This document shows positions 6,316 through 47,999 of a stretch of DNA of 64,000 nt, piece after piece. A program made the translations under genes and the position numbers. The stretch's first letter is position 1. Every line of letters starts with the position of its first letter. Origin of the DNA: an uncultured Microthrixaceae bacterium. GTDB lineage: Bacteria > Actinomycetota > Acidimicrobiia > Acidimicrobiales > VFJN01. The notes beneath the pieces are model-generated. The model was not told the origin of the DNA. It was given only the letters and a program-made list of their open reading frames with translations, and ran no database searches. The stretch spans positions 263,663 to 327,662 of the forward strand of contig CAVSIC010000039.1 in assembly GCA_963727905.1 (NCBI GenBank), given 5' to 3'.

Positions 6316-6367
6316 CGATCGCTCTCGTTCCTGAGGGTTGCTGACATTTCGATCCGGCGTGCGCCGG

Positions 6368-6790
6368 TCACCACTCGAGGTGGTTCGACTCGATACCGCC
6401 GACGACGGCCCACACGTGCGAACCGGGGAAACCGAAGGCGTACGCGGTGACGTTCTCGCCGTCCCGGACCTCGACCACCCCGGTGAGGCCCTGGCCCCAG
6501 TCCGTCGTGGTCTCGCCGCACTCGTCGCAGTGCAGTTGCGCCGAGTGCGGGCCCCTTCCGAACCCGCTCAGCTCCACAACGATCGCCCCACACTCGGTGG
6601 AGGTGCACCCTGCGGGGTTCAGTTGGCTACCTCGCGACACTGCGACCGAGCGCTCCGCAGCCGCGGGGCCTGTCGACGAGGTCGCCGAGGATCCTCGATC
6701 CTCAGATCCAGAGTCCTCACTGCACGCCGCACCAAGAACCAGGATCGCAGCGAGACCGACCGCCACGACCCGACGAGTCATCGCCGCCAT
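6368..6790 (-). CDS. Lipoprotein carrying a paralogue of the adhesin C-terminal 4-Cys tip domain
   Basis: Signal peptide with lipobox-like LGAAC; mature domain aligns by eye to the last ~90 aa of the upstream adhesin (NPxGC..C..GF..CxxCG..WG..VWAVVxGxESNH). Confidence 0.75.
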   Translation of the reverse strand: MAAMTRRVVAVGLAAILVLGAACSEDSGSEDRGSSATSSTGPAAAERSVAVSRGSQLNPAGCTSTECGAIVVELSGFGRGPHSAQLHCDECGETTTDWGQGLTGVVEVRDGENVTAYAFGFPGSHVWAVVGGIESNHLEW

Positions 6791-6792
6791 CG

Positions 6793-12700: not shown

Positions 12701-12977
12701 GAACGAACACGGTTCGGCCCGCCTGCAGGATGTCGGGGCCCTGCTCGACGTCGAGCTTGGTGTCGACCTGCCCGACCTCCATGTTGAGACGACCGACGCT
12801 CGAGGTCGTCGGCCCGCCCGTGGCCGAGAGCGTGGTCTTGGTGATCCAGATGCCCGCGTCGTTCAGGTCGACCTTGGTCTGGCGGTAGCCGTCCGAGGTC
12901 AGGACGACGATCGCGCCGGCGACCACGGCGAAGGCGATGACGACACATGAGAGCGCTCGCCGCGCACCGCCACTCAT
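6793..12977 (-). CDS. Giant surface adhesin (N-terminal anchor, propeller-like region, tandem Ig-like Big_9/cadherin-like repeats, 5 FN3 domains, Cys-rich tip); split by a frameshift near 10525
   Basis: ORF 10131..13037 (start ATG 12977) and ORF 6793..10344 join across a G5 run at 10523-10527; repeated PxAxDD..VLxNDxDPDGD units; FN3 patterns (WSAP..YEV..LKNGTTYHFEVRA). Confidence 0.85.
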
Positions 12978-13064
12978 CCGTCCACGTCCCGCCCGCACAT
13001 CTCGGCCACCCTCGCAGCACGGCGACGCGCGCTGCAACGGGGAGCACTCCCCCGAAAAGAGCCG

Positions 13065-25125: not shown

Positions 25126-25196
25126 GCGGGTGTAGTTCAGAGGCAGAACATCAGCTTCCCAAGCTGAGAACGCGGGTTCGATTCCCGTCACCCGCT
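25126..25196 (+). tRNA. tRNA-Gly (CCC), CCA not encoded
   Basis: GCGGGTG acceptor / CACCCGC-T; anticodon arm TCAGC-TTCCCAA-GCTGA; T-loop GGTTCGATTCC. Confidence 0.96.
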
Positions 25197-25202
25197 CGCA
25201 GC

Positions 25203-25241
25203 AACGACAGCGGCCCCGCCAGTGGCGGGGCCGCTGTCGTT
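25203..25241. terminator. Bidirectional intrinsic terminator between the tRNA and the convergent repeat-protein gene
   Basis: aacgacagcggccccgcc-agt-ggcggggccgctgtcgtt, perfect 18-bp stem. Confidence 0.75.
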
Positions 25242-25259
25242 CTCGTGTGTGGCGCTGGG

Positions 25260-28200
25260 CTACGCCAGGTGGCGGGCCGTCCGGCGCAGGCCGAACCCGG
25301 CGAGCAGGAGCATGAGCGCCACGGCCGCCTCGACCTCGAGCGGGCCACCGGTGCGGGGCAGGCCCGGGGTCTTCTCGGTCTCGGGGACGTCGTCGCACTT
25401 CGACGGGTCGCCGATGATCGCGGTGCCGTCCGACACGTTGCTGGCCTCGCCCTGGTTGCTGACGATGCCGCTGCCGTCGGCGATCTGCTCGAGCTCGGCC
25501 CGGTTGACCGAGTCGTTGCCCACGCCCCGGTTGAGGCCGGCGTTGGCCAGGCCGAGACCCGCGTTGGTCGTCCCGCCGGCGATCGTGGAGATCGCCAGGG
25601 CGCTGTCGACGTCGGCCTCCTGGCCGAAGGTGGTGTCCGACTGGTTGCCGATGCCCGTGGCGTTGCCACTGGCCACCAGGGCCGTGCCGTCGGAGCTGTT
25701 GGAGCCCGTGACGCCGTTGCTGGCGATCTGGGGGCCGACCAGCGGCAGGCCGTCGATGGCGTCGTCGATGTTGCTCGACTGCCCCGCGTTGGCGAAGTTC
25801 ATCGACGAGTTGCCGATGGCCTCGTTGAGCCCGGAGTTGGCGATGCCGACGCCGAGGTTGAGCACGCCGCCGGCCTGGGTGAGCAGCACCACGCCGCCGC
25901 CCGTCGACAGGTCGAGGTCCTGCACCAGGTCGGTGGTGGACTCGTTGCCGCTGGCCGTGGCGTCACCGGTGCACACGCACGCCTCGCCGTCGGACGAGTT
26001 GGAGGCGTCGGCCGAGTTGGATGCCACGATCGGACCGAGCGCCGTGATGTCGCTCGGGTCGGGGTTGGCGGGGCCGGACGAGATCGTGGCGGACTGGACC
26101 ACGCCGTCCGTGAAGTCCGGTGCGGGCGAGATGGCGTTGGAGGACTCGTTGCCCACCGCCCGATTGGCTCCGGTGTTGGCCACGCCGATGCCGATGTTGG
26201 CCACACCACCGACCTGGGTGCCGATCACGAGCCCCGCGTCGTCGACCGACGACACCAGGCCTTGTCGAAGGGTGGTGGTCGACGCGTTGCCGCTGGCCAC
26301 CGCGTTGCCGGTCTTCACCTTGGCGTGGCCATCGGAGCTGTTGGCCGCCGTGGCGGTGTTGCTCGCGGCGAGCGGGCCGAGCGCCGCGATGGTCAGGTCG
26401 TCCACGCCGTTCTGGTTGTCTGCGCCGACGGAGGCCTCCTGGTCGACCCCGACGTCGTTCGGGGAGCCGAGGTCCTGGTTGCCCGAGTCGTTGCCGATGG
26501 CGACGTTCACGCCGCTGTTCGCCACACCGACGCCGACGTTGGCCACGCCAGCCACCTGCGTGCCGATGAGGCCGCCGAGGCCGGTGACGGAGCTCTCCGG
26601 GTCCTGCGACAGGTGGGTGGCGGATCGGTTGCCGTTGGCCCACGCATCGCCGGTGGCGATCTCGGCTGACCCGTCCGAACCGTTCGTGGCCGAGCCGCTG
26701 TTGGTGGCCGCGAGGGGCAGCGCGGCGACGACGTCGACGTCACCGGTGTTCCCCGAGCCGATGCTGGCCCGCTGGCTGACGCTGGCGGCGTCGTTGCTCG
26801 AGCCGTTGCCGGTGGCGAAGTTGAAGCCCGTGTTGGCCCCGGCCAGGCCGACGTTGGCGACCGTGGCGACCTGCGTGTCGAGGACGAACCCGGCGCCCGA
26901 GATCGCGGCGCCCGTCACCTGGTCGAGGTGGGTCGACGAGACGTTGCCGACGGCGGCCGCGTCGCCCGTGACGATGCGGGCACTTCCATCGGACGCGTTC
27001 CCGATCGTGCCGCTGTTGCTGGCGAGGACCTGGGGAGCAGCGACCACGGCGTCGCCCCCGTTCTGGGTCCCCAGGTTCGCGTTCTGGCTGAGGCCGGCCA
27101 CGGAGAACGAGTCGTTGCCCGTGGCCTCGTTGCCGCCGGTGATCGCACCGGCCGCGCCCACGTTGAGGACCAGGGCCGCCTGCGTGTTGACGGCGAACCC
27201 GATCCCGTCGATCGACCCGTCCTCGGTCTGGCTCACCGCCGTGTCGCTGTGGTTGCCGGTGGCCGTGGCGTCACCGGTGGTGATCGACGCACTGCCGTCG
27301 GAGGTGTTGCTGCCCTCGAGCGTGTTGGAGCCGATGATGGCGAGCCCCGCGATGGTGGTGGCGAGGCCGGGGCCGGTCGCCTCGGACCCGATCTGGACGA
27401 CCTGCTCGGTCTGCTGCTGCGGCAGGACGTCGGAGTTGTTCCCGAACGCCTCGTTGGCGCCGGTGTCGGCCCCCGCCGCCCCGGCGTTGACGACGAGCGC
27501 CGCCTGGGTGTTGACCACCAGGCCCGCCCCGCCGATCGCCGCATCAGAGGCCTGCGACGACGGAGGTGGCGCTCTCGTTGCCGGAGGCGGTGGCATCGCC
27601 GGTGGTGATGTCGGCGCTGCCGTCCGTCGTGACGGACAGGTCCGCGCTGTTGGACCCGATGAGGGCGCCGTACATCGTGACCGGCTCCTCGCCCGTCCCG
27701 AGGTCGACGTACTGGGAGCCGTTCAGCGGGTTGAAGCTGTTGTTGCCGATGTCGAAGTTGCCACCGGTGTTGGCATCGGCCACGCCGAGGTTGACCACGT
27801 CGGCGACCTGCGAGGGGAGCACGAGCCCGGTCGGGTCGATGACCTGGTCGAGGTCGGTGCTGGAGGTGTTCCCCGTGGCCCTGGCGTCGCCCGTGGTGAT
27901 CGAGGCGGTCCCGTCGGACGAGTTCGCCACCGACGCGGTGTTGCTGAGCACGACCGGGCCGATCTGGGTGCCCGCCAGGGTGGCGAGGTCCTGGTTGGCG
28001 GTGGTGGCGCTGCCCGACCAGTTGCCGGTGGCGTCGTTGTCCCCGGTGGTGGCCGTGGCGAGGCCGACGTTCTGCACACCGCTGACCTGCGGGAGGACGT
28101 TGAACACGTCGCCCTTGGCGACGGCCTCCTGGCTGACGTGGCTGGCGGAGCCGTTGCCCAACGCCCACGCGTCGCCCGTGTCGACGGTGGCATCGCCGTC

Positions 28201-29499
28201 GGAGCTGTTGCTGGCCGACGCCTGGAACGCGCTGACCCCGAAGAGGGGGAGCTCCCCGTTGTGCGCCTGGCTGATGGCGGCATCGTTGTCGCTGCGGTTG
28301 CCGATCGCGCTGTTCCCGCCGCTGCTCGCGTTGCCGAAGCCGGCGTTGAGGACGCTCGTCAGCTGGGAGGTGAGGGCCCCGGGGCCGGTGACGTCGCCCG
28401 TGGCGGTCTGGTCGACCGCGCTCGAGGAGCGGTTGCCGGCGGCGGTGGCGTTGCCGGTGTTGATCCCGGCCGTGCCGTCGCTCGCGTTCGACGCCTCGGC
28501 CGTGTTGGAGACGACGCCGGTGACGATGGGGATGCCGCCATCCGGGTTGCGCTGGAAGATGCCGGCGCCTTCGGGGAGGCCGAAGCCGTCGTCGGTGTTC
28601 ACCGAGTCGTTGCCGATGGCGAAGTTGTCGCCGGTGGTGGCCTGGGCGAGGCCGACGTTGGCGACCAGCGCGCCCTGCTCGATGATCACGAGGCCGCCGA
28701 CGTCGCCACCCGTGGAGCCGGCGCCCGACTGCATGAGCTTGGTGTCGGACTCGTTGCCGATCGCGGCGGCGTTGCCGGTGCTGATCGTGGCCTTGCCGTC
28801 GGAGTCGTTGCGGGCCTTGCCGTTGTTGGCGGCCAGCCCGGCGTTGGCCTGGGCGAGCTGGTCGAGGATCGAGTCGTTGGTCGACGAGTTCCCGGTCGCG
28901 TTGTTCTGGCCGGAGTCGGCGAGGGCCACGCCGCTGTTCAGCACCGCCGCGTTCTGCCCGATGATGATGATGCCGCCGAGCGTGCCCTGCGCGCTGGTGG
29001 CGTCCTGGGTGAGGTTGGTCGTCGACTGGTTGCCGACCGCGGACGCGTTGCCGGTGGAGACGAAGGCCGAGCCGGTGCTCCCGTTGTGCGCCGAGCCCGA
29101 GTTGACCGCCGGACCGAGCAGGTTCAGGGCGTCCTGGGTGCCGCTGGCGGTGTTGACGGAGCGGTTGCCCGTGGCGGTGTTGCCACCCGTGTTGGCCACC
29201 GCCAGGCCGGCGTTGCCGATCGCCGCGTTCTGGTTGGTGACCTGGAGGCCGCCGAGCGCGCCGGACGCAGAGGCCCCCTGGTTGGTGTTGGAGCCCGACC
29301 GGTTGCCGACGGCCTCGGCGTCACCCGAGTGGGCCGCCCCGGCGCCGTCGGACGTCGTGCCTGCGTCGCTCAGGTCGTCCGCCTGGGCGGCCGAGGCCCC
29401 CAGCAACGTGACGAGGGCACCGCCTGACAGCGAGAGCGCGAGGTTCCGGACGAACCGGCCGCTCGTACGGGTCAGGACATCACCGGTGGTGCTGGTCAA
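25260..29499 (-). CDS. Gly/Asn-rich repeat surface protein A, LPRTG-anchored; +1 frameshift near 27557
   Basis: ORFs 27544..29499 (TTG start, GGGGAG RBS, signal ..SAAQA) and 25260..27596 join; 13 NxSDG..TG[DN]A.A.GN repeats; LPRTG + TM + RR tail. Confidence 0.85.
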
Positions 29500-29533
29500 C
29501 GCGACTCCCCTGGCAGGACGACAAATCCGGTGG

Positions 29534-29555
29534 ATCGTACCCCGCGCGGTACTGC
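29534..29555 (-). promoter_or_regulatory. Candidate promoter element GCAGTAC-N9-TACGAT
   Basis: -10-like TACGAT; same architecture found upstream of paralogue B. Confidence 0.4.
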
Positions 29556-29629
29556 GCGCGGTACAACCCTCGGGCCAGAGTTATCCCCAGATTTCTGGGG
29601 ATTCCCCGGGCCGATCTGGGCCGAGAACG

Positions 29630-29663
29630 ACGAACGCCCCGCCGTTGCCGGCGGGGCGTTCGT
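29630..29663 (-). terminator. Intrinsic terminator after repeat protein B
   Basis: acgaacgccccgccg-ttgc-cggcggggcgttcgt, 15-bp stem. Confidence 0.7.
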
Positions 29664-29685
29664 GGCTGGCTCAGTGAGCCAGATC

Positions 29686-32600
29686 TCAGGCCAGGCTCTG
29701 ACCCTTCCGGCGCAGGCCGAAGCCCACGAGGAGGAGCATCAGGGCGATGGCGGCCTCGGCCTCGATCGGACCGCCCGTGCGGGGCAGACCGGGCGTGCCG
29801 GGCTTCTCGGGGGTCTTCTCGCCACCGGGGACGTCGTCGCACTTCGACGGATCGCCGATCGTGGCGTCGCCATCCGAGTCGTTGGTGGCCTCGCCGTCGT
29901 TGCTGACGATGCCCGAGCCGTCGGCGTCCTGCTCGAGGGTGGCCGAGTTGCGGGAGGCGTTGCCGACACCGAGGTTGAGGCCGGCGTTGGCCAGACCCAG
30001 ACCGGCGTTGGTCGTGCCGCCGGTGATGGAGGACACGGCCAGGGCGCTGTCGACGTCGGCCGCCTGGGCGAAGTTGGTCGTGGACTGGTTGCCCGTGCCC
30101 TTGGCGTTGCCCGTGGCCACCTTGCCGGCACCATCGGACTTGTTGCTCGCCGTGCCGCCGTTGTGGGCCGTCTGGGCCAGGGCGATCGGGAGCAGGGCGT
30201 CGTTGATGGTGGCGTCCTGGATGGTGGTGGCATCGTTCTGGGAGATGTTCCCGATCGCCAGGTTCAGACCGCTGTTGGCCAGGCCCACGCCGGCGTTGAG
30301 CACGCCGCCCGCCTCCGTGAGGATGACGAGGCCGCCACCCGTGGAGAGGTTGAGGTCCTGCGTCAGCGTGGTGGACGACACGTTGCCGCTGGCGAAGGCG
30401 GCGCCGGTGCACACGCACGCCTCGCCGTCGGAGCTGTTCGACGCCTCACCCGAGTTGGCCGCCGTGATGGGGCCGAGGGCGAGGAAGCTCGTCGGGTCGG
30501 TCTCGCCCGAGACGATGTCGGCGGACTGGCGCTCGGCGTCGTCACCGGTGAGGGTGGCCTGGTTGGCCGAGAGGTTGCCGACGGCGGCGTTGAGGCCGGA
30601 GTTGGCGACGCCGATCCCGATGTTGGCCACACCGGCCACCTGCGTCGGAGCGACGAGGCCGAGGCCCGACACCGTGCCGCTCTGGGCCTGGGTCAGGTTG
30701 GTGGCCGAGGCGTTGCCCGTGGCGAGGGCGCCGCCGGTCTTGACCTTGGCCGTGCCGTCCGAGCTGTTGCTGGCGGTGCCGGCGTTGGAGGCCGTGATGG
30801 CCCCGAGCGCCACGATGTCCAGGTCGTCGGTGTCGTCGTTGCCGGAGCCGACCCGAGCCGTCTGCTCGGCCTGGGCGGAGGCGTCGCTGCCCTGGAAGAA
30901 GTCGAACTGGCCGGCGGCGTTGCCGACGGCGGCGTTGAGGCCGGAGTTGGCGATGCCGACGCCCACGTTGGCCACACCGGCCACCTGGGTGCCGATCACG
31001 AGACCGGCGCCGTCGACGGAGCTGTCGGGATCCTGGTTGAGGAAGGTCGAGGACACGTTGCCCTGGCCCTGCGCCCCGCCGGTGATGACGTCGGCCTGGC
31101 CGTCGGACGTGTTGCTCGCCTCGCCGCTGTTCGACGCCGTGATCGGGCCGAAGGCGATGATGCTGACGTCGCCGGGATCGAGGTCGTTGTCAGAGCCGAT
31201 CTCGGCGGTCTGCTCCAGGTCGGCGGACGCGCCGCCGCGGGGGTCGCCGTTCAGCGAGGCGTTGCCGATGCCGACGTTGCCGCCGCTGTTGGCCACGCCG
31301 AGACCGTTGTTGATCACGCCGCCCAGCTGCGTGTTGAGCACCATCCCGAGGCCCGAGACGTCGCCGCCGGTGGCCTGGGTGAGCTCGGTCTGGGAGACGT
31401 TGCCGGTGCCCATGGCGTCGCCGGTGGTGATGTTGGCGGTGCCGTCGGAGGTGTTGCTGGCCGTGCCGTTGTTGGTGGCCGTGATGAACGTGCCGACGAT
31501 GTCGATGTCGTCGACGTCGGGCGAGTTGTCCGAGCCGATCGAGGCCTTCTGGTCGAGGTCGACGGCGTTCTGCGAGATGTTGCCGACAGCGACGTTGCCG
31601 CCGCTGTTGCCAAGGCCCACGCCGGAGTTGACCACGTCGGCGGCCTGGGTGTTGATGATGCCGCCGAGGCCGGAGATGGTGCCGCCCTCGCTCTGGCGGA
31701 GGTGGGTCTGGCTCTTGTTGCCCCAGCCCTCGGCATTGCCCGTGGCGATGGAGGCGCTGCCGTCCGAGCTGTTCGAAGCGGTGCCGTTGTTGGCGGCCGT
31801 GATGATCCCGGCGAGGACGTTGACGGAGCCGACGTCGTCGTTGTCCGAGGCGATCTCGGCGGTCTGATCCTCGATGTCCGCATCGTTGACGGAGGCGTTG
31901 CCGACGGCGAGGTTGGCGCCGCTGTTGCCCACCCCGAGGCCGGTGTTCTGCACGGCGGCGACCTGCGTGTTGAGGATGAAGCCCGCACCATCGATGGCGC
32001 CGGTGGAACCCTGCTCGACCCAGGTCTCGCTGGAGTTGCCGGTGCCCGTGGCGTTGCCGGTGCGCACCGAGGCGGCACCGTCGGAGCTGTTCGAGGCCTC
32101 GCCGTTGTTCGAGGCGACGATGGTCCCGGCGATGATCGTCGGGGCGACGTTGCCCTCGGTGCCGATCTCGGCCGACTGGTCGCCGGCGTCGGCGGTGTTG
32201 TTGGAGACGTTGCCGACGGCGACGTTGCCACCGCTGTTGGCGATGCCCACGCCGGCGTTGGTGACGACGGCGAGCTGCGTCGGCAGGATGAGGCCGGTCG
32301 GGTCGATCGTCTGGCCGATCGTGGTCTTCGAGTCGTTGCCGGTGGCGACCGCGTTGCCGGTGGTGATGTGGGCCGAGCCGTCCGAGCTGTTGGAGGCCAT
32401 GCCGAAGTTGCCGATGACGCCGATGCCGATGGCGTCGGCCGGGAGCTCGGCGTTCTGCTCGACGAAGGCGTCGCCCTGCGAGACGTTGCCGATGCCGGCG
32501 TTCAGGCCGGAGTTGGCGACGCTGGCACCGATGTTCTGGACGGAGTTGACCTGCGGCAGGAGCTGGAAGGCGCCGCCCTCGGCCACAGCCGTCTGGCTGA

Positions 32601-33981
32601 CGTTGTTCTCGGCCACGTTGCCGTTGGCCCAGGCATCGCCCGAGTGCACGTCGGCGGAGCCGTCGGAGCTGTTGGACGCCAGGCCGAAGTTCCCGACCAC
32701 ACCGACGTCGAGGCCGCCCGAGGAGGGAGCGGTCTGGTCGACGTCAGCGTAGTTGTTGGAGGCGTTGCCGACCGCGGCGTTGAGGCCGGAGTTGGCAGCC
32801 GCGAGGCCGATGTTCAGGACGTTCGAGCCCTGGCTGATGATCGCACCGCCGCCGGGGCCCTCGATGTCCGAGTTGGCGTTCTGCGTGACGTTGGTCTTCG
32901 ACTGGTTGCCGACCGCCGAAGCGTTGCCGGTGGTGATGCCGGCCGAGCCATCGGACCAGTTGGAGGCCTCGCCGTTGTTGGAGGCCACGCCGATGATGTC
33001 CGGGTCGACGTCGTTGCCGATGCCCTGCTCGAGGAACGCACCCTGGTCGCCCGGGAAGAGGCCGCCGTCGCCGTTGTCGGCGACGTTGCCCACCGCAGCG
33101 TTGCCACCGGTGTTCGAGGCAGCGATGCCGACGTTGGCCACGAAGCTGTTCTGGTCGATGATCACGAGACCGCCGAGCGCACCGCCGGCGGAGCCGGTGG
33201 CCGACTGGACGATGTTGGTCTCGGACTGGTTGCCCGTGGCCGACGCGTTGCCGGTGTTGATGGTGGCCTTGCCGTCGGAGTTGTTGGTGGCCTTGCCGCT
33301 GTTGGCGGCGATGCCGGCCGCCGAGTTGGCGTCCTGCACGAGGCCGGCGGTGTTGTTCGAGCCGTTGCCGGCGGCGATGTTGCCGCCGCTGTTGGCCAGG
33401 GCCACGCCGCTGTTCAGGACGTTGGCGTCCTGGTTGATGACGAGGATGCCGCCGAGCAGGCCGTGCGCCGAGCCGTTGGCGGTCTGGTTGATCGTGGTGT
33501 TCGACCGGTTGCCGACCGAGCTGGCGTCGCCGGTGGAGATGGCGGCCGAGCCGTTGCTCGAGTTGGCGGCGGTGCCCGTGTTGGACGCCGGGCCGAGGCC
33601 GCTCGCGCCGGTCTGCTCGCCCGAGGCGGTGTTCACCGAGCCGTTGCCGATGGCGATGTTGCCGCCGGTGTTGGAGACCGCGGCGCCGACGTTGGAGACG
33701 TTGGCGCGCTGGTTGATCACCTGGATCGTGCCGAGGTTGCCCGAGACCGTGACGGTCTGGGTGCTGTTGGTCCCGGACTGGTTGCCGACGGCGGTGGCGT
33801 CACCGGAGTGCGCCTGACCCGTGCCATCGGAGACCGTGCCGGCGTCGCTCAGATCCTCGGCGTGGGCGGCGGACGCACCCAGGAGGGTGATCAGCGCACC
33901 TCCCGAGAGAGACAGGGCCAGGTTGCGAACGAACCGACCGCTCGTCGTCCGGTCCAGGTCGTCACCAGTGGTGATGGTCAA
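29686..33981 (-). CDS. Gly/Asn-rich repeat surface protein B, LPRTG-anchored (intact paralogue of A)
   Basis: TTG start after GGAGGA; signal ..SAAHA; 13 repeats; DGEACVCTG; PSKCDD..LPRTGG + TM + RRK. Confidence 0.9.
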   Translation of the reverse strand: MTITTGDDLDRTTSGRFVRNLALSLSGGALITLLGASAAHAEDLSDAGTVSDGTGQAHSGDATAVGNQSGTNSTQTVTVSGNLGTIQVINQRANVSNVGAAVSNTGGNIAIGNGSVNTASGEQTGASGLGPASNTGTAANSSNGSAAISTGDASSVGNRSNTTINQTANGSAHGLLGGILVINQDANVLNSGVALANSGGNIAAGNGSNNTAGLVQDANSAAGIAANSGKATNNSDGKATINTGNASATGNQSETNIVQSATGSAGGALGGLVIIDQNSFVANVGIAASNTGGNAAVGNVADNGDGGLFPGDQGAFLEQGIGNDVDPDIIGVASNNGEASNWSDGSAGITTGNASAVGNQSKTNVTQNANSDIEGPGGGAIISQGSNVLNIGLAAANSGLNAAVGNASNNYADVDQTAPSSGGLDVGVVGNFGLASNSSDGSADVHSGDAWANGNVAENNVSQTAVAEGGAFQLLPQVNSVQNIGASVANSGLNAGIGNVSQGDAFVEQNAELPADAIGIGVIGNFGMASNSSDGSAHITTGNAVATGNDSKTTIGQTIDPTGLILPTQLAVVTNAGVGIANSGGNVAVGNVSNNTADAGDQSAEIGTEGNVAPTIIAGTIVASNNGEASNSSDGAASVRTGNATGTGNSSETWVEQGSTGAIDGAGFILNTQVAAVQNTGLGVGNSGANLAVGNASVNDADIEDQTAEIASDNDDVGSVNVLAGIITAANNGTASNSSDGSASIATGNAEGWGNKSQTHLRQSEGGTISGLGGIINTQAADVVNSGVGLGNSGGNVAVGNISQNAVDLDQKASIGSDNSPDVDDIDIVGTFITATNNGTASNTSDGTANITTGDAMGTGNVSQTELTQATGGDVSGLGMVLNTQLGGVINNGLGVANSGGNVGIGNASLNGDPRGGASADLEQTAEIGSDNDLDPGDVSIIAFGPITASNSGEASNTSDGQADVITGGAQGQGNVSSTFLNQDPDSSVDGAGLVIGTQVAGVANVGVGIANSGLNAAVGNAAGQFDFFQGSDASAQAEQTARVGSGNDDTDDLDIVALGAITASNAGTASNSSDGTAKVKTGGALATGNASATNLTQAQSGTVSGLGLVAPTQVAGVANIGIGVANSGLNAAVGNLSANQATLTGDDAERQSADIVSGETDPTSFLALGPITAANSGEASNSSDGEACVCTGAAFASGNVSSTTLTQDLNLSTGGGLVILTEAGGVLNAGVGLANSGLNLAIGNISQNDATTIQDATINDALLPIALAQTAHNGGTASNKSDGAGKVATGNAKGTGNQSTTNFAQAADVDSALAVSSITGGTTNAGLGLANAGLNLGVGNASRNSATLEQDADGSGIVSNDGEATNDSDGDATIGDPSKCDDVPGGEKTPEKPGTPGLPRTGGPIEAEAAIALMLLLVGFGLRRKGQSLA

Positions 33982-34092
33982 CAGTCTCCTCCAGGAGCTT
34001 TGTCGTGGGGCGGGCCCACGGGATTCAGATCGGGGGGGTGGCAGCGTCGAAGATCGGCGTGCCGCCGGGAAGCAAAGGCGTGAAGCCCGAGC

Positions 34093-34114
34093 AATGTAAC
34101 GCAAAACGTACTGC
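34093..34114 (-). promoter_or_regulatory. Candidate promoter element GCAGTAC-N9-TACATT
   Basis: -10-like TACATT in an AT-richer stretch; matches the element upstream of paralogue A. Confidence 0.4.
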
Positions 34115-34289
34115 AACGCCCGACACCAGTGGCGCACTGCTTCGGACGGCCCAGATCATGCCGCTCGTCGGGGGTCCGGTCAAACGCCCATCTCCCGGGA
34201 TCTCGGGCCTCGCACACCCGAAAATCCCGGAGAATCCGCCAGGGGGTGATGTTGCGCCACCTACCTACGTGTGGGTGAATGGACGGGCC

Positions 34290-36029
34290 ATGGCACCGGA
34301 CACCCCCGAGCCCGAGGCGCCCAGGCCCGGAACGCCCCGGTCGGAGGGCGACGCCCCCCGCCCGCCCAGGATCCTGGTGGAGGTCGGGGACCTCGAGGAC
34401 CCCGCGGAGTGGGACGTGATCCTGGTCGAGAACCAGGAGATCGACGACGAGACGGCCCGCCGGATCGCCGCCCAGCGGGCCGGGCGGCCCGAACCCCCGA
34501 CCAACCCCCGCCTCGGCCCCCGCATGCCGGCCGGGCCCTCCGTGTCGCTGCCCTCGCTCGACGAGCGGGACGTGATCCAGGCCTTCGAGACCGATCGCGA
34601 TGCCGAGGACGCCACCGAGATCGACGTCGACGCCTTCCTCCGCCCCGACGACGGCACCCCGCTGCGCCGCCGCGAGGTGGCGGAGCTGCCGCCGGAGCAC
34701 GACGCCTTCGCCGACCACCCCGAGCCCGGCGACGAACCGGACGAGCCGGAGCCGGTGGCGGAGGAGCCCGAGCCGGAGCCCGAGGTCGAGGAGCCCGAGG
34801 TCGAGGAGCCCGAGGCCGAAGCCGAGCAGCCCGTCGACGCGTGGGCGCCGGCCGTGCGCGAGGGCCCCGTGCTGCTCGACGACCCCGACGACGCGTTCTA
34901 CGCGCTCGGTGATGCGGAGGTCGTGGTCGACGCGCCGACGGTCGACGAGGACGCGCCTCCCACCGAGGACGAGGCGGCGTTCGCACCCGAGCCGTCCGGC
35001 GACGACGCCGACGACGCGACGTCCGAGGATGCGGACGACGACGAGGACGGCGACACCGGCGCGTCCGACGACGGGGACACCGAGGCCGAAGCCCAGACCG
35101 ATGCCCCGAACGAGCTCGACGGCGATGAGCCGGTCGAGCCGAGCGGGTGGGACCTCAGCGCGGTCGCGCTCGACGAGGAGCGCGAGCTGCTCGACGATCC
35201 CGACGACGCGTTCTACGCGCTCGGTCGCAACCGCATCGCCGCGTTCCGCCCGGTCCCCGGCGCACCCGTCGTGCCGCCCTTGCCGGCGCCCACCGCTCGG
35301 CTGAGCTCGGACCTGTGGGGCACAGACGGCACCGCACCGCCGCCCGAGGAGGAGGTGTTCGAGGACGAGGTGGAGGTCGACTCCAGCTTTCCGCTCGGCC
35401 CTGACGACCTGGTGATCGACGGTGACGTCGAGCCGGTCGCGCTCGACGAGCTCGACTACGCCAACGTGTTCGGCCCGGTGGAGGGCGACCTCAGCATCCC
35501 CGACCTCGACGCGCCGCCGACCGAGCGCCGCCGGCGCGGCGCCAAGCCGGCCTACGAGGACGACCTCTACGTGTTCGAGGACGACGATCGGCACTGGCCG
35601 GTCCCCGAGCCGCGAGGCGGCCGCCGCCGCGAGCTGGTCGCGCTCGGCCTCGCCGCCGGGATCGTCGTCGCCCTCGGCGTCGGGAGCCAGGTGTTCGCCA
35701 AGCCGGACCGGCAGGAGAACGTCACCGAGCAGTCGACCACCAGCACCACGCGCCCGCGGGTGCGCACGAGCGACACGAGCGCCCCCGACCTCACCCTGCC
35801 GACGGTGCCCGCCGACGAGCCCGCGGACCCGGGGGGCGTCACCGTCACCACCAAGCCGCGCACCAACACGACGGTGAAGGGCAAGCCGACCACGCCGACC
35901 ACGCCGACCACGGCGTCACCGACCCCGACCACCGAGGCACCCACCACCACCGCGGCGCCCACCACCACTGCGGCGCCCACCACCACTGCGGCGCCCACCA
36001 CCACTGCCCCGCCCGACGAGGGACCCTGA
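34290..36029 (+). CDS. Highly acidic, disordered cytoplasmic domain + single TM + Thr/Pro-rich extracellular tail
   Basis: D/E/P-rich ORF with high-GC3 codons; TM LVALGLAAGIVVALGVG; PTTTAA repeats. Confidence 0.7.
   Translation: MAPDTPEPEAPRPGTPRSEGDAPRPPRILVEVGDLEDPAEWDVILVENQEIDDETARRIAAQRAGRPEPPTNPRLGPRMPAGPSVSLPSLDERDVIQAFETDRDAEDATEIDVDAFLRPDDGTPLRRREVAELPPEHDAFADHPEPGDEPDEPEPVAEEPEPEPEVEEPEVEEPEAEAEQPVDAWAPAVREGPVLLDDPDDAFYALGDAEVVVDAPTVDEDAPPTEDEAAFAPEPSGDDADDATSEDADDDEDGDTGASDDGDTEAEAQTDAPNELDGDEPVEPSGWDLSAVALDEERELLDDPDDAFYALGRNRIAAFRPVPGAPVVPPLPAPTARLSSDLWGTDGTAPPPEEEVFEDEVEVDSSFPLGPDDLVIDGDVEPVALDELDYANVFGPVEGDLSIPDLDAPPTERRRRGAKPAYEDDLYVFEDDDRHWPVPEPRGGRRRELVALGLAAGIVVALGVGSQVFAKPDRQENVTEQSTTSTTRPRVRTSDTSAPDLTLPTVPADEPADPGGVTVTTKPRTNTTVKGKPTTPTTPTTASPTPTTEAPTTTAAPTTTAAPTTTAAPTTTAPPDEGP
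35940..36011 (+). repeat. 18-bp tandem repeat x4 (PTTTAA)
   Basis: cccaccaccac(c/t)gcggcg units; the last unit is degenerate. Confidence 0.85.
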
Positions 36030-36030
36030 C

Positions 36031-37803
36031 GTGAACGACGCCCCTCAGTCCCTCGACCTGGGCCCGCTCGACGAGATCCGTCCGGGCGCCTGGTTCGCGC
36101 CGGGACGGCAGATGGTCGTGAACGACCGGCTCGTGCAGGGCCTCCGCTTCTCGCGCCACATCACCCAGGACGAGCTCGTCTCGGGCTGGCTCGAGGTGGT
36201 GCCCGACTTCGCGGCGATCGCCGCGTTCGCCCATCGGGTGGAGCTCACGACGGGCGGCACCGTCGAGGTCGTCGAGCTCGACGGCGACGACCTCGCTCCC
36301 CACCAGCGCTCGCGGCTGGTCCTGCGGGGCGCCGACGGGTGGCTCGACGGGGGCGCCGCGGGGGGCACCGCGATCCTCTCCCTCGACGACGGGCGGCTCG
36401 ACCTCCGGTGGGCGCCCCCCCTCGGCGAGCTCGAGCTCGACCCCATGCCCATCGCGGCGACCTTCGAGCAGCTCGGCGGCGGCGAGCCCGTGCCGCTGCT
36501 GGACCTGGTGCTCCACCTGCTCATCGACCACCGCGGGCTCTTCGAGGCCGACGCCCCGCTGCCGCTGCGCGACCTCCTGCTCGTCGCGGGGCTCGACGTC
36601 GAGGGCACCACCGTCGTGCGCGCCGAGATGCGCCCCGCCGCCCGCGGCGCCGATCCCGTCGGCCTGCCCGGCCTGGGTCTGTCTTCGGCCCTGGCCGCCG
36701 AGCGGCTCCTCGGCGCGGCCCTGGACCCGTCCACCGCAGCCGTCGACGAGGTCCTCGAGGCGCTGGCCGATGCCGACGCCGTCGCCGCGGTCGCCGAGCA
36801 GATCGTGGGTGGCGCGCTCATCGAGCCCGGGCAGCTGGGCCAGCTCGTCACCACCCTCGAGACCGCCGCCGGACCCGCCCACCACGCCGCCGTCTCCTTC
36901 CTCCGCTCCCGGCTCGCCGAGTGGGAGGGCGACGCCGTCGCCCAGGAGGCCGCTCTGGCTCCCGCGGTGGCCGCGCAGCACCCGGCCGCCCTGCTCGACG
37001 CCGCGTGGTTCGCCGGCGACCGGGGCGACGCCCGCGAGGCGATCGCGCTCCTGCGCTCCGCCCACGTGCCGACCGACGACCCCGACCTCGAGCTCCTGGC
37101 CCGGTTCACGGCCAACGGGCCGCGCTGGGTCGGGCGCAACGACCCGTGCTGGTGCGGGTCGGGCCGCAAGCACAAGCACTGCTGCATCCACCTCAGCGGC
37201 CACGACCTCACCGCCCGGGTGCCGTGGCTGCACGCCAAGGCCGTGTCCTTCCTGCAGCGCCCCCCAGCCCGGGCCACGCTCCTCGCGGTCGCCACCACCA
37301 GCGCCGGGCTCACCTCGCCCGACGATGCCCCGGCTCGGGTGATCGCGGCCGCGTGCGATGCCTCCGTGGCCGAGCTGTGCCTCTTCGAGGGCGGGCTGTT
37401 CGCCCGGTTCGTCGAGCACCGCGGCGCGCTCCTCCCCGACGACGAGCGGGAGCTGGCGGAGAGCTGGGCGGCGCAGCGCCACCAGATCTGGGACGTCCTG
37501 GCCGACGGCAGCGCCCTCCGGCCCGTCGGCGGGGGCCCCGACCGGCCCCTGGACCCGTGGTCGCGGTCCAAGCTGCACGGCCCCGGGCTGGTCATGGCGG
37601 TCGTCCAGCCGGGCCCGATCGCGCTCCCCGGACCCGCCGTCACGGTGGTCCCGGGCCTGGTCGACCAGCTCGTCGGGCTGCTGGGCGGAGGCGACGTGCA
37701 CACCCTCGCCGGGTTCCTCGGACGCGAGCTCGGATGGACCTCGGCTCCCGACCTAGGCTCGGACCCCGACCCCGCACCGGACGCGCTGGCTCCCACGCCC
37801 TAG
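36031..37803 (+). CDS. SEC-C motif (Zn-binding) domain protein
   Basis: VGRNDPCWCGSGRKHKHCC internal motif. Confidence 0.85.
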   Translation: MNDAPQSLDLGPLDEIRPGAWFAPGRQMVVNDRLVQGLRFSRHITQDELVSGWLEVVPDFAAIAAFAHRVELTTGGTVEVVELDGDDLAPHQRSRLVLRGADGWLDGGAAGGTAILSLDDGRLDLRWAPPLGELELDPMPIAATFEQLGGGEPVPLLDLVLHLLIDHRGLFEADAPLPLRDLLLVAGLDVEGTTVVRAEMRPAARGADPVGLPGLGLSSALAAERLLGAALDPSTAAVDEVLEALADADAVAAVAEQIVGGALIEPGQLGQLVTTLETAAGPAHHAAVSFLRSRLAEWEGDAVAQEAALAPAVAAQHPAALLDAAWFAGDRGDAREAIALLRSAHVPTDDPDLELLARFTANGPRWVGRNDPCWCGSGRKHKHCCIHLSGHDLTARVPWLHAKAVSFLQRPPARATLLAVATTSAGLTSPDDAPARVIAAACDASVAELCLFEGGLFARFVEHRGALLPDDERELAESWAAQRHQIWDVLADGSALRPVGGGPDRPLDPWSRSKLHGPGLVMAVVQPGPIALPGPAVTVVPGLVDQLVGLLGGGDVHTLAGFLGRELGWTSAPDLGSDPDPAPDALAPTP

Positions 37804-37861: not shown

Positions 37862-38755
37862 ATGCTTGATCTGAGCACCGCTGTGCTGTGCGACTTCGCC
37901 CAGGTGCGCGACCGCCTCCTGTTCGTCTCGTCCGGCGCGGTGTCCCGCCTGTACCGCCAGGAGCTCCCGTCGCCCCTCGGCCTCATGGTCGGGCTGGTCA
38001 TCGAGGTGCCCCTCGAGGACGCAGGCATGGACCACCAGCTGCGGGCCGAGGTCATCAACCGCCACGGCACCGTGCTCGCCACCCTCGAGAACACCTTCCG
38101 GGTCAGCGACGTCGGCCTGTTCCCCCACGAGGTGCAGCAGGTCCCGCTGGTCCTGTCGATCACCGGTGTGCGGGCCCGCACCTGGGGCACCCACCAGGTC
38201 CGCCTCTACCTCGACGGCGAGCTGGTCCGCGCCCTCACGCTCTACGTCGTGCCCGCCGCCGGACCGCAGACGGCCGTCCGGGCGGCGCCCACCCAGAGCC
38301 GCGTGGCCGACGACGAGGGCACCTTCGCCGGAGGCGGCGAGGACGTTCCCGCGTCGCCGCTCGGAGACGGCGACACCGACGCTCCGCAGCCGAGCTTCGC
38401 CGACGAGCCCGAGGGTGACGGCCACAGCGTCGTCCTCGAGGGCGACGATATCGGCGACCTCGACGCACCCGTGGTGCTCGACGAGCTCACCGCCCCGCCG
38501 CCCGCCCCGGCCCCGGCCCCGGCGTTCGCCCCGGCCCCCGCGCCCGAGGGCGAGCCGCTCCAGGCCGCGCCCCCGGCCCCCGAGGAGGCCGTGAACTGGG
38601 GCGATGCCCCGGCCCCCGCTCCCGCTCCGGAGCCCGAGCCCGGCGTGTTCGACTTCGAGGACAGCGACGATCTGGACCGTGAGCCCCCGACGCGACCGGC
38701 GGACGACCGCGAGGGCAGCCGATTCTCGTTCCGCTACCTCGTCGACGAGGACTGA
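37862..38755 (+). CDS. Hypothetical protein (DUF6941-like N-terminal beta domain + acidic Pro-rich tail)
   Basis: AVLCDFAQVRDRLLFVSSG..GTHQVRLYLDGE pattern. Confidence 0.6.
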   Translation: MLDLSTAVLCDFAQVRDRLLFVSSGAVSRLYRQELPSPLGLMVGLVIEVPLEDAGMDHQLRAEVINRHGTVLATLENTFRVSDVGLFPHEVQQVPLVLSITGVRARTWGTHQVRLYLDGELVRALTLYVVPAAGPQTAVRAAPTQSRVADDEGTFAGGGEDVPASPLGDGDTDAPQPSFADEPEGDGHSVVLEGDDIGDLDAPVVLDELTAPPPAPAPAPAFAPAPAPEGEPLQAAPPAPEEAVNWGDAPAPAPAPEPEPGVFDFEDSDDLDREPPTRPADDREGSRFSFRYLVDED

Positions 38756-45406: not shown

Positions 45407-45525
45407 CAAGGCGGCGGAGGGGGCGTGGCTTCGCCATCCCCCCGGAGCCACCTGCGAAGGCTGAAGCCCACGCCGGAGGGCGCAGCCCGGAAGCCACGCC
45501 CGACCGGAGCAAGCAGATGACTCAG
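45407..45525 (-). repeat. Dispersed REP/MITE-like repeat, copy 1 (begins at the dnaB stop)
   Basis: CTGAGTCATCTGCTTGCTCCGGTCG matches 57650-57674 at 24/25; similarity continues; internal 12-bp IR 45421-45432/45490-45501. Confidence 0.65.
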
Positions 45526-47999
45526 TCGAACCCGCGGGCCATGTTCGCGAACCTCGTGTACTGCGGGAGGAAGGCGAGGTTGGCGACGCCGGTGGGCCCG
45601 GAGCGGTGCTTGGCCACGATGATCTCGGCCTGGCCGGCGTTCTCCGGCTTCGGGTCGTAGATCTCCTCGCGGTAGATGAACATCACCACGTCCGAGTCCT
45701 GCTCAATGGAACCCGATTCGCGCAGGTCGGCCAGCATCGGGCGCTTGTCCGCCCGCATCTCGAGCCCGCGGGACAGCTGGGACAGCGCGACCACGGGCGT
45801 CTCCAGCTCGCGGGCGAGGATCTTCAGGCCGCGACTGAGCTCGGACACCTCGACCTGGCGGCTCTCCGCCCCCGACCGGCCGCTCATCAGCTGGAGGTAG
45901 TCGATCACGATGACGCCGAGGTCGCCGATCTGGCTCTTGAGGCGGCGGGCCTTGGCCCGGATCTCCATGATCGTGAGGTTCGGGTTGTCGTCGATCCAGA
46001 TCGGCGCCTCGGCGAGGCGGCCCATCGCCCGCGAGATCTTCGTCCAGTCGTCGGCTTGGAGCTGGCCGTTGCGGATGCGCTGCGAGTCGACCCGGGCCTC
46101 CGCGCACAGCAGGCGCTGGGAGAGCTCGAGGTTGCTCATCTCCAGGGAGAAGAAGAGCACCGGTCGGTTGGCCTCGAGGGCGGCGTGGGCGACCATGCCG
46201 AGGGCGAACGAGGTGTTGTGCACGAACACGTCGGCCGCCACGAAGTTGTGCAGCTCGGGGATCGTGAGGTCGTAGACCTGCTCGTCGCCCTCGGGCTCGA
46301 TGGCCACGATCTCGTCCCAGCGCAGATCCGCACCGGGCCCTGCGGACGCGTCGCGCACGCCCCCGGAACCGCGGCCGACGAGCACCCGCTGCGGGGCGGC
46401 CTGGGCGTGAGCCACGAGGTCGACGAGCGCGGCCTGCTGGCCGAGCACGCCGATGTCGTCGCGGAGCCGCTGCAGGTCGTCGCCGCCGGAGATCTCGAGC
46501 TCGTGGCTGACCCACGCGCTGTCGTTCGCGGCGACGATCGGTGCCCGCACCGCGGCGTTGATGCCGAACCGCAGGAACAGGTGCTGCAGGTCGCGGACGA
46601 GGCGGGCGCTCGGCGACGCGAGGAGCACCCGGCCGCGACCGGCGGCGCCCGCCGGGATCCAGGTGGAGCCACCGATGGCCAGCACGCGGTTGAGGAACGC
46701 GGCGAGCTGGTGGCGCGGGAGCCGGTAGACGGCCTCGGGCACCCGCCGGACCTCGGGGTCCTCGGACAGGCGGTGGCGGTGAGCGAAGCGCTCGATCGTG
46801 GGGCACGTCTCGACGTCGTACCGGGGCGTGGCCGGGTCGATCGTGCGGTCGAGGACCTCGAAGCAGGCCCGCGCTCCGAGCTCGCGCAGGTCGAGGGCCA
46901 GGGCACGGTCGGCGCAGCTGATGGCGGGCCCGTCGCCGAGCGGGAGCCCGGAGCCGACGAGGTAGCCCAACAGGCCGACCTCCGCACCGGGGAGGCCGTC
47001 GTGGCCGAACACCGGGAGCTCGCGGGGGACGCCGACCGTGGCCCCCTCCTCGAGGTCGACCAGGGGGCGCCAGCCCTGCGGGGTGAGGAACGGGTGGCTC
47101 GCGGTGGTCCGCACCTCGCGGCCGAGGCGCGTGCGCACCCGGAACACCGGCTTGCGACCGTCGTCGACGAAGGCGGACGGCGACGCGACCGCGAGGCGAC
47201 CGTCGTCTCCGAGGGCCAGCACGCGAACGTCCTCCCCGACGGTGCCGGCGCGGTGCAGCTCGGCGGCGGTGCGCACCGCACCCGAGCGGGGATCGACGAT
47301 CGGGGTGTCCCAGGCCACGCACTTGCCCATGGCGGGCCGGGCGCCGACGACGACCAGCGCGCTCTTCTGCAGGCCGGAGAGGAGGTGGTCGAGGTCGATG
47401 TAGCCGGTGGGGACGCCGGTGATCGAGTCGCCCTGCTCGTAGAGGGCCTCGAGTCGGTCCAGGTTCTCCGACAGGAGGTCGGCGAGGCGCTGGGTGCTGT
47501 CGGTGACGCGGCGCTCGTTGACCTCGTAGACCATCGACTCGGCGCGATCGAGGGCCTTGGCCACGTCCTCGGGCACCGAGTAGCCGAGCTCGGCGATCTC
47601 GCCCGCCACGCCGATGAGCCGGCGCAGCAGCGCGTACTCCTCGACGATGCGGGCGTAGCGGCCGGCGTTGGTGGTGGCCGGCGTGGAGGCCATGATCTGC
47701 GCCAGCACGGCCGGGCCGCCCAGCGACTCGAGCAGGTTCGCCCGGCGGAGCTCGTCGGCCACGGTGACCGAGTCGACCGGCTGGCCCGACGCGTAGAGGG
47801 TGTGGATGGCGTCGTAGATGTGCCCGTGGGCCGGCTTGTAGAAGTCGGACGCGGTGACCACGCCGGCGGCCGCGGCGATGGCCTCGGCCGACAGCATCAT
47901 GGCGCCGAGGAGCGACTCCTCAGCCTGGAGGTCATGCGGGGGAACCCGCCCAGCGGCCGCCCGCCGAGGCGCGTCAGGATCGTCGTTTCGAGTGGCCAT
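45522..47999 (-). CDS. dnaB: Replicative DNA helicase DnaB with intein
   Basis: PPHDLQAE, GARPAMGK|intein|TSFA, IDYLQLM, LSQLSR, LRESGSIEQDSD, AKHRSG. Confidence 0.97.
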   Translation of the reverse strand: MATRNDDPDAPRRAAAGRVPPHDLQAEESLLGAMMLSAEAIAAAAGVVTASDFYKPAHGHIYDAIHTLYASGQPVDSVTVADELRRANLLESLGGPAVLAQIMASTPATTNAGRYARIVEEYALLRRLIGVAGEIAELGYSVPEDVAKALDRAESMVYEVNERRVTDSTQRLADLLSENLDRLEALYEQGDSITGVPTGYIDLDHLLSGLQKSALVVVGARPAMGKCVAWDTPIVDPRSGAVRTAAELHRAGTVGEDVRVLALGDDGRLAVASPSAFVDDGRKPVFRVRTRLGREVRTTASHPFLTPQGWRPLVDLEEGATVGVPRELPVFGHDGLPGAEVGLLGYLVGSGLPLGDGPAISCADRALALDLRELGARACFEVLDRTIDPATPRYDVETCPTIERFAHRHRLSEDPEVRRVPEAVYRLPRHQLAAFLNRVLAIGGSTWIPAGAAGRGRVLLASPSARLVRDLQHLFLRFGINAAVRAPIVAANDSAWVSHELEISGGDDLQRLRDDIGVLGQQAALVDLVAHAQAAPQRVLVGRGSGGVRDASAGPGADLRWDEIVAIEPEGDEQVYDLTIPELHNFVAADVFVHNTSFALGMVAHAALEANRPVLFFSLEMSNLELSQRLLCAEARVDSQRIRNGQLQADDWTKISRAMGRLAEAPIWIDDNPNLTIMEIRAKARRLKSQIGDLGVIVIDYLQLMSGRSGAESRQVEVSELSRGLKILARELETPVVALSQLSRGLEMRADKRPMLADLRESGSIEQDSDVVMFIYREEIYDPKPENAGQAEIIVAKHRSGPTGVANLAFLPQYTRFANMARGFD
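46215..47321 (-). mobile_element. Class 1 intein (369 aa) in the DnaB Walker A motif, degenerate LAGLIDADG endonuclease
   Basis: Cys1 CVAWDT, block B TTASHPF, block F/G VYDLTIPELHNFVAADVFVHN, +1 Thr. Confidence 0.93.

Follow-up and report, generated by a model that had tools for sequence, protein, structure and literature searches.

Curlin repeats, the building blocks of curli, are about 19–23 residues long and fold as strand–arc–strand units; more generally, the rungs of beta-solenoids in solved proteins comprise, as far as is known, some 12–40 residues. The Pseudomonas functional amyloid FapC is exported through the outer-membrane channel of the fap operon. The chaplin family includes long sortase-anchored and short secreted forms, with domains of about 40 hydrophobic residues and two Cys. 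Among other surface and repeat proteins, the beta-helix adhesins of Firmicutes are classical three-sided helices with rungs of about 20–25 residues, RTX rolls consist of nine-residue Ca2+-binding half-turns, and the springtail and snow-flea antifreeze proteins are polyproline-II bundles. For the curlin core, one study gives the seven-residue pattern N-$-Psi-$-Psi-$-Q on two facing strands with a 2.4 Å stagger, and the same source includes CsgA proteins with many repeats, such as a 15.5-repeat Pontibacter protein (PDB 8c50, 8enq; PMC10192328). Here we describe two adjacent genes, A and B, in a 64,000-nucleotide stretch of a contig from an uncultured soil bacterium of the Microthrixaceae (CAVSIC010000039.1; the whole stretch is hereafter the window), each encoding a large repeat protein. 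The reading we favour, with moderate confidence and on the strength of structure prediction, is that each is an acidic beta-solenoid of curli-like design with giant rungs, attached by sortase and serving as a passive structure at the cell surface.

A hidden Markov model (HMM) grown from one repeat of the window identifies 13 full repeats in the product of gene A, followed by the 16-residue start of a 14th, and the same pattern in gene B, where the seventh repeat spans a frameshift. Each repeat matches at 66–95 bits (i-Evalue 1e-22 to 1e-31), and the array is far beyond chance. The core of the repeat is 85 amino acids (aa) long and is joined by linkers of 6–36 aa, often Asp-rich; the period is 92–115 aa. 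The repeats are imperfect (35–60% identical to one another), and A and B are themselves 54–57% identical. An initial annotation made from the letters alone had described two paralogues with a signal peptide, an LPRTG motif and 13 repeats each; translation and the HMM bear this out on every point, with the corrections that both genes lie on the minus strand and that gene B carries a frameshift. Its proposal that each repeat consists of two related halves is plausible from their alignment to each other, which is weak and covers 24 columns (hhalign P = 7e-4, probability 26%).

Both composition and conservation are distinctive. Gly (17%), Ala (14%), Asn (11%) and Ser (10%) dominate, and the gene A protein, with 128 acidic against 29 basic residues, has a pI of 4.05 and a net charge of about -100. 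The linkers hold runs of Asp in a D-x-D pattern, and the rung described below has a conserved Asp at two of its bends. Conservation follows a period of 2 along the repeat, the conserved face being made of small or polar residues, while the outward positions vary between orthologues as well as paralogues and are mostly hydrophilic or acidic. Repeat number and position-specific residues are maintained in orthologues down to about 50% identity. The N-x-S/T sequon is enriched (54 against 29 ± 4.8 in shuffled sequences), but a reading in terms of N-glycosylation was dropped, since structural Asn and Ser ladders explain the enrichment and no glycosyltransferase was found nearby.

The repeat could not be assigned to a described family. 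Neither Pfam nor NCBIfam contains a match at E ≤ 1 for A or for either part of B, PHROGs has no family at E ≤ 0.01 for gene A (nor a match for three neighbouring genes), and a repeat-profile search of the PDB sequences returned nothing related, its best E of 0.28 belonging to an unrelated transporter. In the ESM Atlas, residues 615–1045 of A reached at best 0.87, to unnamed clusters and under the level that counts. Pfam applied to 23 diverse members of the family gave one weak match to the anchor motif and nothing else. These searches support, as far as sequence comparison goes, the initial view that the repeat lies outside the named families. In the partly accessible literature on sortases in Acidimicrobiales and on LPXTG repeat proteins of Acidimicrobiia or Microthrix we found nothing on this repeat family, and similarly limited sources on LPXTG-anchored beta-solenoid amyloids and on the number of residues per solenoid rung gave nothing on such proteins.

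Relatives are nonetheless numerous. A word-indexed search returned 117, of which 38 have 13 repeats and the others between 4 and 19. A profile of 25 repeats from the window, run against 1.84 billion cluster representatives, matched 427 clusters at E ≤ 0.001, of which 316 remain at a cut-off of 1e-10 and 178 at 1e-30. As to the taxonomic range, which the initial annotation had proposed to establish with an HMM, all of the named records looked up are metagenome-assembled genomes of Acidimicrobiales or Actinomycetota apart from one labelled Chloroflexi. The source records call these proteins 'hypothetical protein' or 'LPXTG...anchor', with one 'filamentous hemagglutinin' and one 'S-layer family protein'. 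The last name belongs to the homologue MBA2609952.1 (P0063); Pfam finds 0 families there and 0 in A and B, and an S-layer identity was rejected. The distribution of the family is patchy, given that a match at E ≤ 1e-10 occurs in only 12 of 301 sampled genomes of the class, the source genome included (8 of 237 when good-quality genomes are considered), and that a congeneric genome of 99% completeness lacks one.

Structure prediction yields the stacked beta-solenoid that the initial annotation had expected from modelling three to four repeats. For residues 615–1045 of A, which cover four repeats, AlphaFold2 with an alignment of 54 of the 117 homologues gave an all-beta model with a mean predicted local distance difference test (pLDDT) score of 91.3 and a predicted template modelling (pTM) score of 0.75, in which each repeat forms four strands of 18–29 residues. 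The residues facing the core are N-x-S-x-T-x-(I/L/V)-x-Q opposite Q-x-A-x-V-x-N, followed by further pairs of Ala, Gly, Ser and Asn. In a second model, covering the C-terminal 386 residues of A (1046–1431), repeats 11–13 and the partial 14th are again beta; model residues 340–356 have a pLDDT below 50 and appear as a disordered stalk, after which residues 361–385 form a helix. A second method, ESMFold2, folded a 4.5-rung paralogue from the same genome at pLDDT 83–85.

The topology was examined independently by mean-field direct coupling analysis (DCA) of 1213 of the 1456 repeat rows from the 117 proteins (rows with more than eight gaps were dropped; effective number of rows, Meff, ~950). The top pairs within a repeat, 24–63 (z 17.8), 11–75, 31–55, 31–57, 33–53, 17–70 and 37–49, all have i+j = 85–88, which implies that the two halves of the repeat run antiparallel and face each other around a bend at positions 43–45, over a span of at least positions 11–77. 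This bend is the only chain reversal that DCA places within the repeat core; couplings among near-invariant Gly columns are regarded as artefacts. Between adjacent repeats (1016 pairs), the same-position couplings have a mean of 1.65, with 38 of 85 above the 99.9th percentile of the other inter-repeat pairs; this declines to 0.87 (25/85) two repeats apart and to 0.49 (9/85) four apart. The cross coupling is asymmetric: between position 63 of one repeat (n) and position 24 of the next (n+1) it is 3.49, against 0.40 for the reverse direction and 0.29 for repeats two apart, which is exactly what a staggered solenoid predicts. AlphaFold2, DCA and the ESMFold2 contacts thus agree, at the level of prediction, on parallel in-register repeats with inward ladders. 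They support a two-sheet solenoid in which each rung is a single repeat of about 100 residues, stacked in register with a half-rung stagger. The equation of one repeat with one rung draws on DCA, on the ESMFold2 contact list and on the fold-search alignments discussed below, in which each match to a two-sheet solenoid aligns about 80–120 residues spread over all four repeats.

Both proteins look like sortase substrates, and their sequences support this: A and B start with a signal peptide and end with an LPRTG motif, then a hydrophobic helix, then a basic tail. Across 12 orthologues, the signal peptide of A keeps R11, R16 to L21 and the hydrophobic stretch unchanged, and an LPx[TSA]G pattern lies within the last 60 residues of 86 of the 117 homologues. 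The same genome contains two matches to the sortase family PF04203 above the cut-off, both on other contigs, one of them being a class E sortase (177.9 bits against a cut-off of 160). As with the fold topology, which coevolution also addresses, it is prediction that establishes the signals for export and anchoring and that a sortase is present.

Put together, these results suggest the following scheme. A and B would be exported by Sec and then covalently linked to peptidoglycan through LPRTG by the genome's class E sortase. Each would fold without a partner as a parallel beta-solenoid of two sheets, rigid and very acidic. In every rung, the first half (profile positions 1–42) would run out and turn at a Gly-x-Gly bend, the second half (45–85) would run back, the two would face each other, with small and polar side chains (Ala, Gly, Ser, Thr, Asn, Gln) forming a long zipper between them, and a variable acidic linker would close the rung. 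Conserved residues would point toward the core and variable, mostly hydrophilic or acidic ones outward. A short Pro-rich stalk would carry a stack of some 13.5 rungs in register, the two sheets being offset by half a rung; at the 0.48 nm per rung of cross-beta structures, the stack would be about 6.5 nm tall. Its role at the surface would be that of a passive coat, spacer or adhesive plate and not that of an enzyme. The actual anchoring, these dimensions and the surface role are what we infer from the predictions; the 'sheath' role proposed initially found no support in this analysis.

Several points weigh against this interpretation. No sortase gene was found within the 64-kb window, the source genome has a completeness of just 72%, and the signal of A and B is LPRTG, whereas class E sortases usually go with LAxTG. 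The five AlphaFold2 models of residues 615–1045 spread from pLDDT 59.5 to 91.3, and the C-terminal model reached only 77.6, with a pTM of 0.53. The same-position signal that remains four repeats apart in DCA must partly reflect shared ancestry or composition. Foldseek against the PDB gave no match at E ≤ 0.001, and the Z values of the VIA-align matches lie within the range common for unrelated repeats: 8.4 for the CsgA fibril 8enq (rmsd 8.0, 93 residues aligned), 7.4 for the springtail antifreeze protein 7jjv (rmsd 3.0, 114 aligned), 5.5–6.1 for the SufB/SufD helices (rmsd 2.6–3.3, 118–120 aligned) and 3.5–4.7 for RTX rolls. AlphaFold2 also over-predicts solenoids on repeats, a bias described for perfect repeats (PMC11795689); it is because of this bias that the topology was tested by coevolution.

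The same bias, the spread of the models, the missing Foldseek match and the Gly/Ala/Asn/Ser-rich composition are what one would cite in favour of a modelling artefact, the proteins then being flexible low-complexity spacers rich in Gly, Asn and Ser, or strings of separate small domains. We consider this very unlikely. The bias concerns perfect repeats, whereas those of A and B are imperfect; the strict period of 2 in their conservation and their near-invariant Gly and Asn positions were maintained over long evolutionary times; long-range and one-sided inter-repeat couplings are unexpected of a disordered spacer; and the confident fold of the paralogue comes from a second method. A beta-solenoid surface protein of an undescribed kind is the reading that the analysis supports.

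Among the systems introduced above, A and B resemble curli CsgA, which is also the best fold-search match of the A model. Both, in the case of A and B by prediction, have imperfect repeats, one per rung, two parallel in-register sheets with a half-rung stagger, a core zipper of small, Ser or Thr residues flanked by Asn or Gln, variable outward residues and a terminal half repeat. In contrast to curli, however, the rung of A and B would be four to five times longer (about 85–115 residues), the host is of the Gram-positive type, the protein is a predicted sortase substrate, and polymerization of A or B is hypothetical. No csgEFG-type secretion or nucleation domains were detected in the 18 open reading frames (ORFs) of the window supported by third-position GC content (GC3), the rest of the genome not having been searched. 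FapC (PDB 9u4u, 9nqd) shares a cross-beta stack and imperfect Gly/Asn/Gln-rich repeats with variable linkers, and is among the top matches, all of them weak; its own is very weak (Foldseek E 0.17; VIA Z 3.1, rmsd 16.7), there is no sequence-family match, and no fap-type genes were found near A and B in the domain scan of the window ORFs. Streptomyces chaplins are likewise actinobacterial, with long wall-anchored and short secreted members in one genome, but A and B have repeats of about 100 hydrophilic, acidic residues, and the co-occurrence of long and short forms failed in both of two other genomes carrying the A/B family. Neither the Pfam Curlin_rpt nor the chaplin family matches A or B (0 families at E ≤ 1). 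The predicted rung corresponds to the whole repeat of about 100 residues and not to a half-repeat or a curli-sized unit. By none of the features tested do A and B belong to the curli, Fap, chaplin or S-layer families. The binding region of the serine-rich repeat protein of L. reuteri (PDB 5nxk), one of the sortase-anchored beta-helix adhesins, also presents a beta-solenoid ectodomain on an LPXTG anchor; its VIA Z is only 2.2, and it has no repeat-level sequence periodicity like that of A and B.

RTX rolls and the springtail and snow-flea antifreeze proteins resemble the A model in being flat two-layer stacks of extended Gly-rich segments, RTX having Asp at its turns, yet Pfam and the PDB sequences reveal no sequence relationship to A or B. 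These weak fold matches bear on the possibility that A and B are binding proteins, in which the acidic plate and an Asp-rich ridge of linkers would bind Ca2+ or other cations, minerals or ice, or adhere to a partner, the solenoid being a mere scaffold. The strongly negative charge, the D-x-D linkers, the Asp conserved at two bends and the variation of the outward positions, as expected for a surface in contact with the environment, would fit such a role. We nevertheless judge it improbable: Pfam and NCBIfam give no match to Ca2+-binding, ice-binding or adhesin families, the outward faces lack the regular Thr/Ser arrays of ice-binding proteins, the fold matches fall in the range common for unrelated repeats, and the neighbourhood offers no hint of a ligand.

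The initial annotation had also proposed to look for anchorless secreted partners, and these exist. Besides A and B, two short members in the source genome carry a signal peptide but lack an anchor (G000:C1, 395 aa, and G000:C10, 302 aa; hereafter C1 and C10). Among 129 further family representatives, 59 are at most 480 aa long, and a crude pattern test assigns a signal peptide but no anchor to 22 of these 59. The short forms share a fixed architecture, beginning, according to the alignment, with a second half-repeat and ending just after a first half-repeat. When two copies of C1 (residues 52–395) were modelled together by ESMFold2 with an 11-row alignment, the pair scored 0.65, 0.65 and 0.67, against 0.00 for the best of three controls, which were unrelated proteins and not other solenoids. 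Of 30 proteins solved as one-chain pairs, 20 reach this mark; of 23 solved as single chains, 1 does. The runs agree in at least 97% of contacts, with a partner pLDDT of at least 83, and the interface joins residues 314–395 of one copy to residues 52–135 of the other, head to tail. Its constant, parallel offset corresponds to an in-register continuation of the solenoid. The score favours head-to-tail binding of C1 without showing it.

These observations raise the possibility of a functional amyloid or fibre, in which open solenoid ends would stack head to tail and the anchored A and B would serve as bases or nucleators, the secreted 4.5-rung paralogues polymerizing on their distal N-terminal end, like short chaplins or like CsgA on CsgB. 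The presence of C1 and C10 in the same genome, the conservation of the short class, the predicted C1 pair and the fact that the best fold-search matches are curli and FapC fibrils all speak for it. We still regard it as unlikely. With controls that were not solenoids, any open solenoid end might score as C1 does, and the pair tested was C1, not A or B; a covalently anchored 13-rung monomer is stable without polymerization; and the C-terminal end may be capped by the incomplete 14th repeat, which has a conserved Cys. Moreover, no short paralogues were found at E ≤ 1e-8 in either of the two other near-complete genomes with long anchored members (G243 and G255), where all matches at this threshold fall in reading frames of at least 1713 aa, so a two-component fibre system is not general in the family. 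Anchored members together with the secreted partners that the initial annotation proposed to search for are seen in the source genome but not in these two. In a related and likewise unlikely view, A and B would be a Gram-positive counterpart of curli following a new principle, each a single-chain amyloid protofilament of thirteen covalently linked, sortase-anchored layers whose open distal edge would template the head-to-tail growth of the secreted paralogues into fibres tethered to the wall; each layer, a serpentine some 100 residues long, would match those of pathological amyloids in size. The passive, self-folded solenoid remains the interpretation we prefer. The coordinates of the two genes and their features are given in Table 1.

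Table 1. Positions in the window of genes A and B, their parts and the upstream promoter-like site
Feature	Position	Strand	Description
Gene A	29686–33981	−	Intact, 1431 aa; putative LPRTG-anchored repeat protein (ORF, translation, GC3 0.94)
Gene A signal peptide	33859–33981	−	Residues 1–41 (translation); cleavage probably after AHA
Gene A repeat array	29857–33849	−	Residues 45–1375; 13 repeats and partial 14th (HMM matches, AlphaFold2 models)
Gene A C-terminus	29689–29856	−	Cys1381, Pro-rich stalk, LPRTG, membrane helix, RRK tail
Gene A LPRTG	29773–29787	−	Residues 1399–1403; L1399, P1400, T1402 and G1403 invariant in 12 orthologues
Promoter-like site upstream of gene A	34155–34183	−	Weak consensus match; 1 site against 0.3 expected in shuffles
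Gene B, whole	25260–29499	−	About 1410 aa if the frame is restored
Gene B, N part	27544–29499	−	651 aa: signal peptide, repeats 1–6 and first third of repeat 7
Stop of gene B N part	27544–27546	−	TGA
Extra base splitting gene B	27555–27560	−	Short direct repeat; frame change located from sequence
Gene B, C part	25260–27596	−	778 aa: remainder of repeat 7, repeats 8–13, partial 14th
LPRTG of gene B C part	25347–25361	−	Residues 746–750 of C part, followed by membrane helix and basic tail (RR)

The product of gene A is identical to a protein in a public collection (P0004). In gene B, skipping one base within the short direct repeat restores the repeat motif, and the same repeat resumes at about position 27560. 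An independent public short-read run (X1) contains a 151-nt contig, otherwise identical, that lacks exactly one base at 27558; this one low-depth contig (depth 2.4) is the only one to bridge the site. This contig, together with the multi-frame state of another paralogue, C5, in the same draft genome, suggests that the split is most likely an assembly error or a variant and not a designed truncation, gene B probably being intact. C5 (G000:C5:36391-43959, locus L015 at about 3300–10975) is longer than A and B, ends in LPRTG and contains Gly-rich GGxGG-type stretches between its repeats; it reads in at least five frames, with many frameshifts in the draft assembly, and the same multi-frame damage is seen at locus L004 of another genome. 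Four soil-metagenome DNA runs of one study contain parts of the window (at most 0.24 of the sampled words), and no RNA runs with window sequence are listed among the public sequencing runs.

The window is GC-rich (0.67–0.76) and full of spurious ORFs, among which GC3 singles out the real genes. Opposite the repeat genes, stop-free frames extend on the plus strand over 25222–29427 (1401 codons) and 29530–34083 (1517 codons). They translate to Arg/Gly/Ala-rich nonsense and are a by-product of GC-rich repeats coding for Gly, Ala and Asn, not genes.

Two further features of the proteins deserve mention. The n-region of the signal peptide (residues 10–21 of A, window positions ~33919–33954) is unusually conserved, with R11 and R16-F-V-R-N-L21 kept across orthologues at 50–73% identity and also in gene B; it is not a twin-arginine motif. 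The gene A protein has only three Cys, namely 1189 and 1191 (window positions ~30409–30417), which make up a C-x-C motif of repeat 12 and do not vary among 12 orthologues, and 1381 (~29839–29841), located right after the partial 14th repeat. The corresponding residues in the C part of gene B are Cys 540, 542 and 734. From this layout, the three Cys could act as a disulphide staple of a C-terminal cap.

Downstream of gene B lie a tRNA-Gly gene, dcd and a gene for an Fe-S/CCG protein. The tRNA-Gly gene (anticodon CCC; 25126–25197, plus strand) is located 63 bases past the gene B stop, between gene B and dcd, and could, given the patchy family, mark an insertion site, as in a genomic island, but base composition does not deviate. 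Upstream and divergent are the genes for an acidic single-pass membrane protein (34005–36029), a SEC-C-motif protein and a DUF6941 protein, followed by amt and an EPSP synthase gene. The first three of these neighbours (34005–37803 and 37862–38755, plus strand) keep their place beside the repeat genes in two other genomes with a common gene order (L001 and L004), and the pairing of the SEC-C-motif protein (590 aa) with a repeat gene is also seen in G255. The acidic membrane protein is extremely acidic and apparently disordered, with a Thr/Pro-rich tail. No clue to function was found in these three conserved neighbours. The number of tandem repeat genes ranges from 1 (L003) through at least 2 (L001) to 4 (L002). 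A conserved A+B heterodimer was dropped as a candidate because this number varies and because the best orthologue of B among the 117 relatives is only 57% identical.

Elsewhere in the window, the gene for the DnaB replicative helicase (45522–47999, minus strand) is interrupted by an intein with a LAGLIDADG endonuclease domain, and the region 6793–13037 (minus strand) encodes two further very large proteins of surface type (1183 and 968 aa), in which bacterial Ig, cadherin-like and fibronectin type III domains occur.

If A and B fold as predicted, rungs of about 100 residues with a polar zipper of 40 residues would widen the range known for the beta-solenoid fold, and large flat layers, known otherwise only from amyloid fibrils, could be studied in a model that is soluble, monomeric and genetically defined. 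Such rigid, acidic and programmable plates would also be of interest as protein materials. If, in addition, the short secreted paralogues polymerize on the anchored ones, they would constitute a new sortase-tethered system of functional amyloid. To our knowledge, Acidimicrobiales are a widespread but almost uncultured lineage of soil and water whose cell envelope is essentially unstudied, and the giant-rung solenoid would provide the first structural idea for one of their surface proteins.

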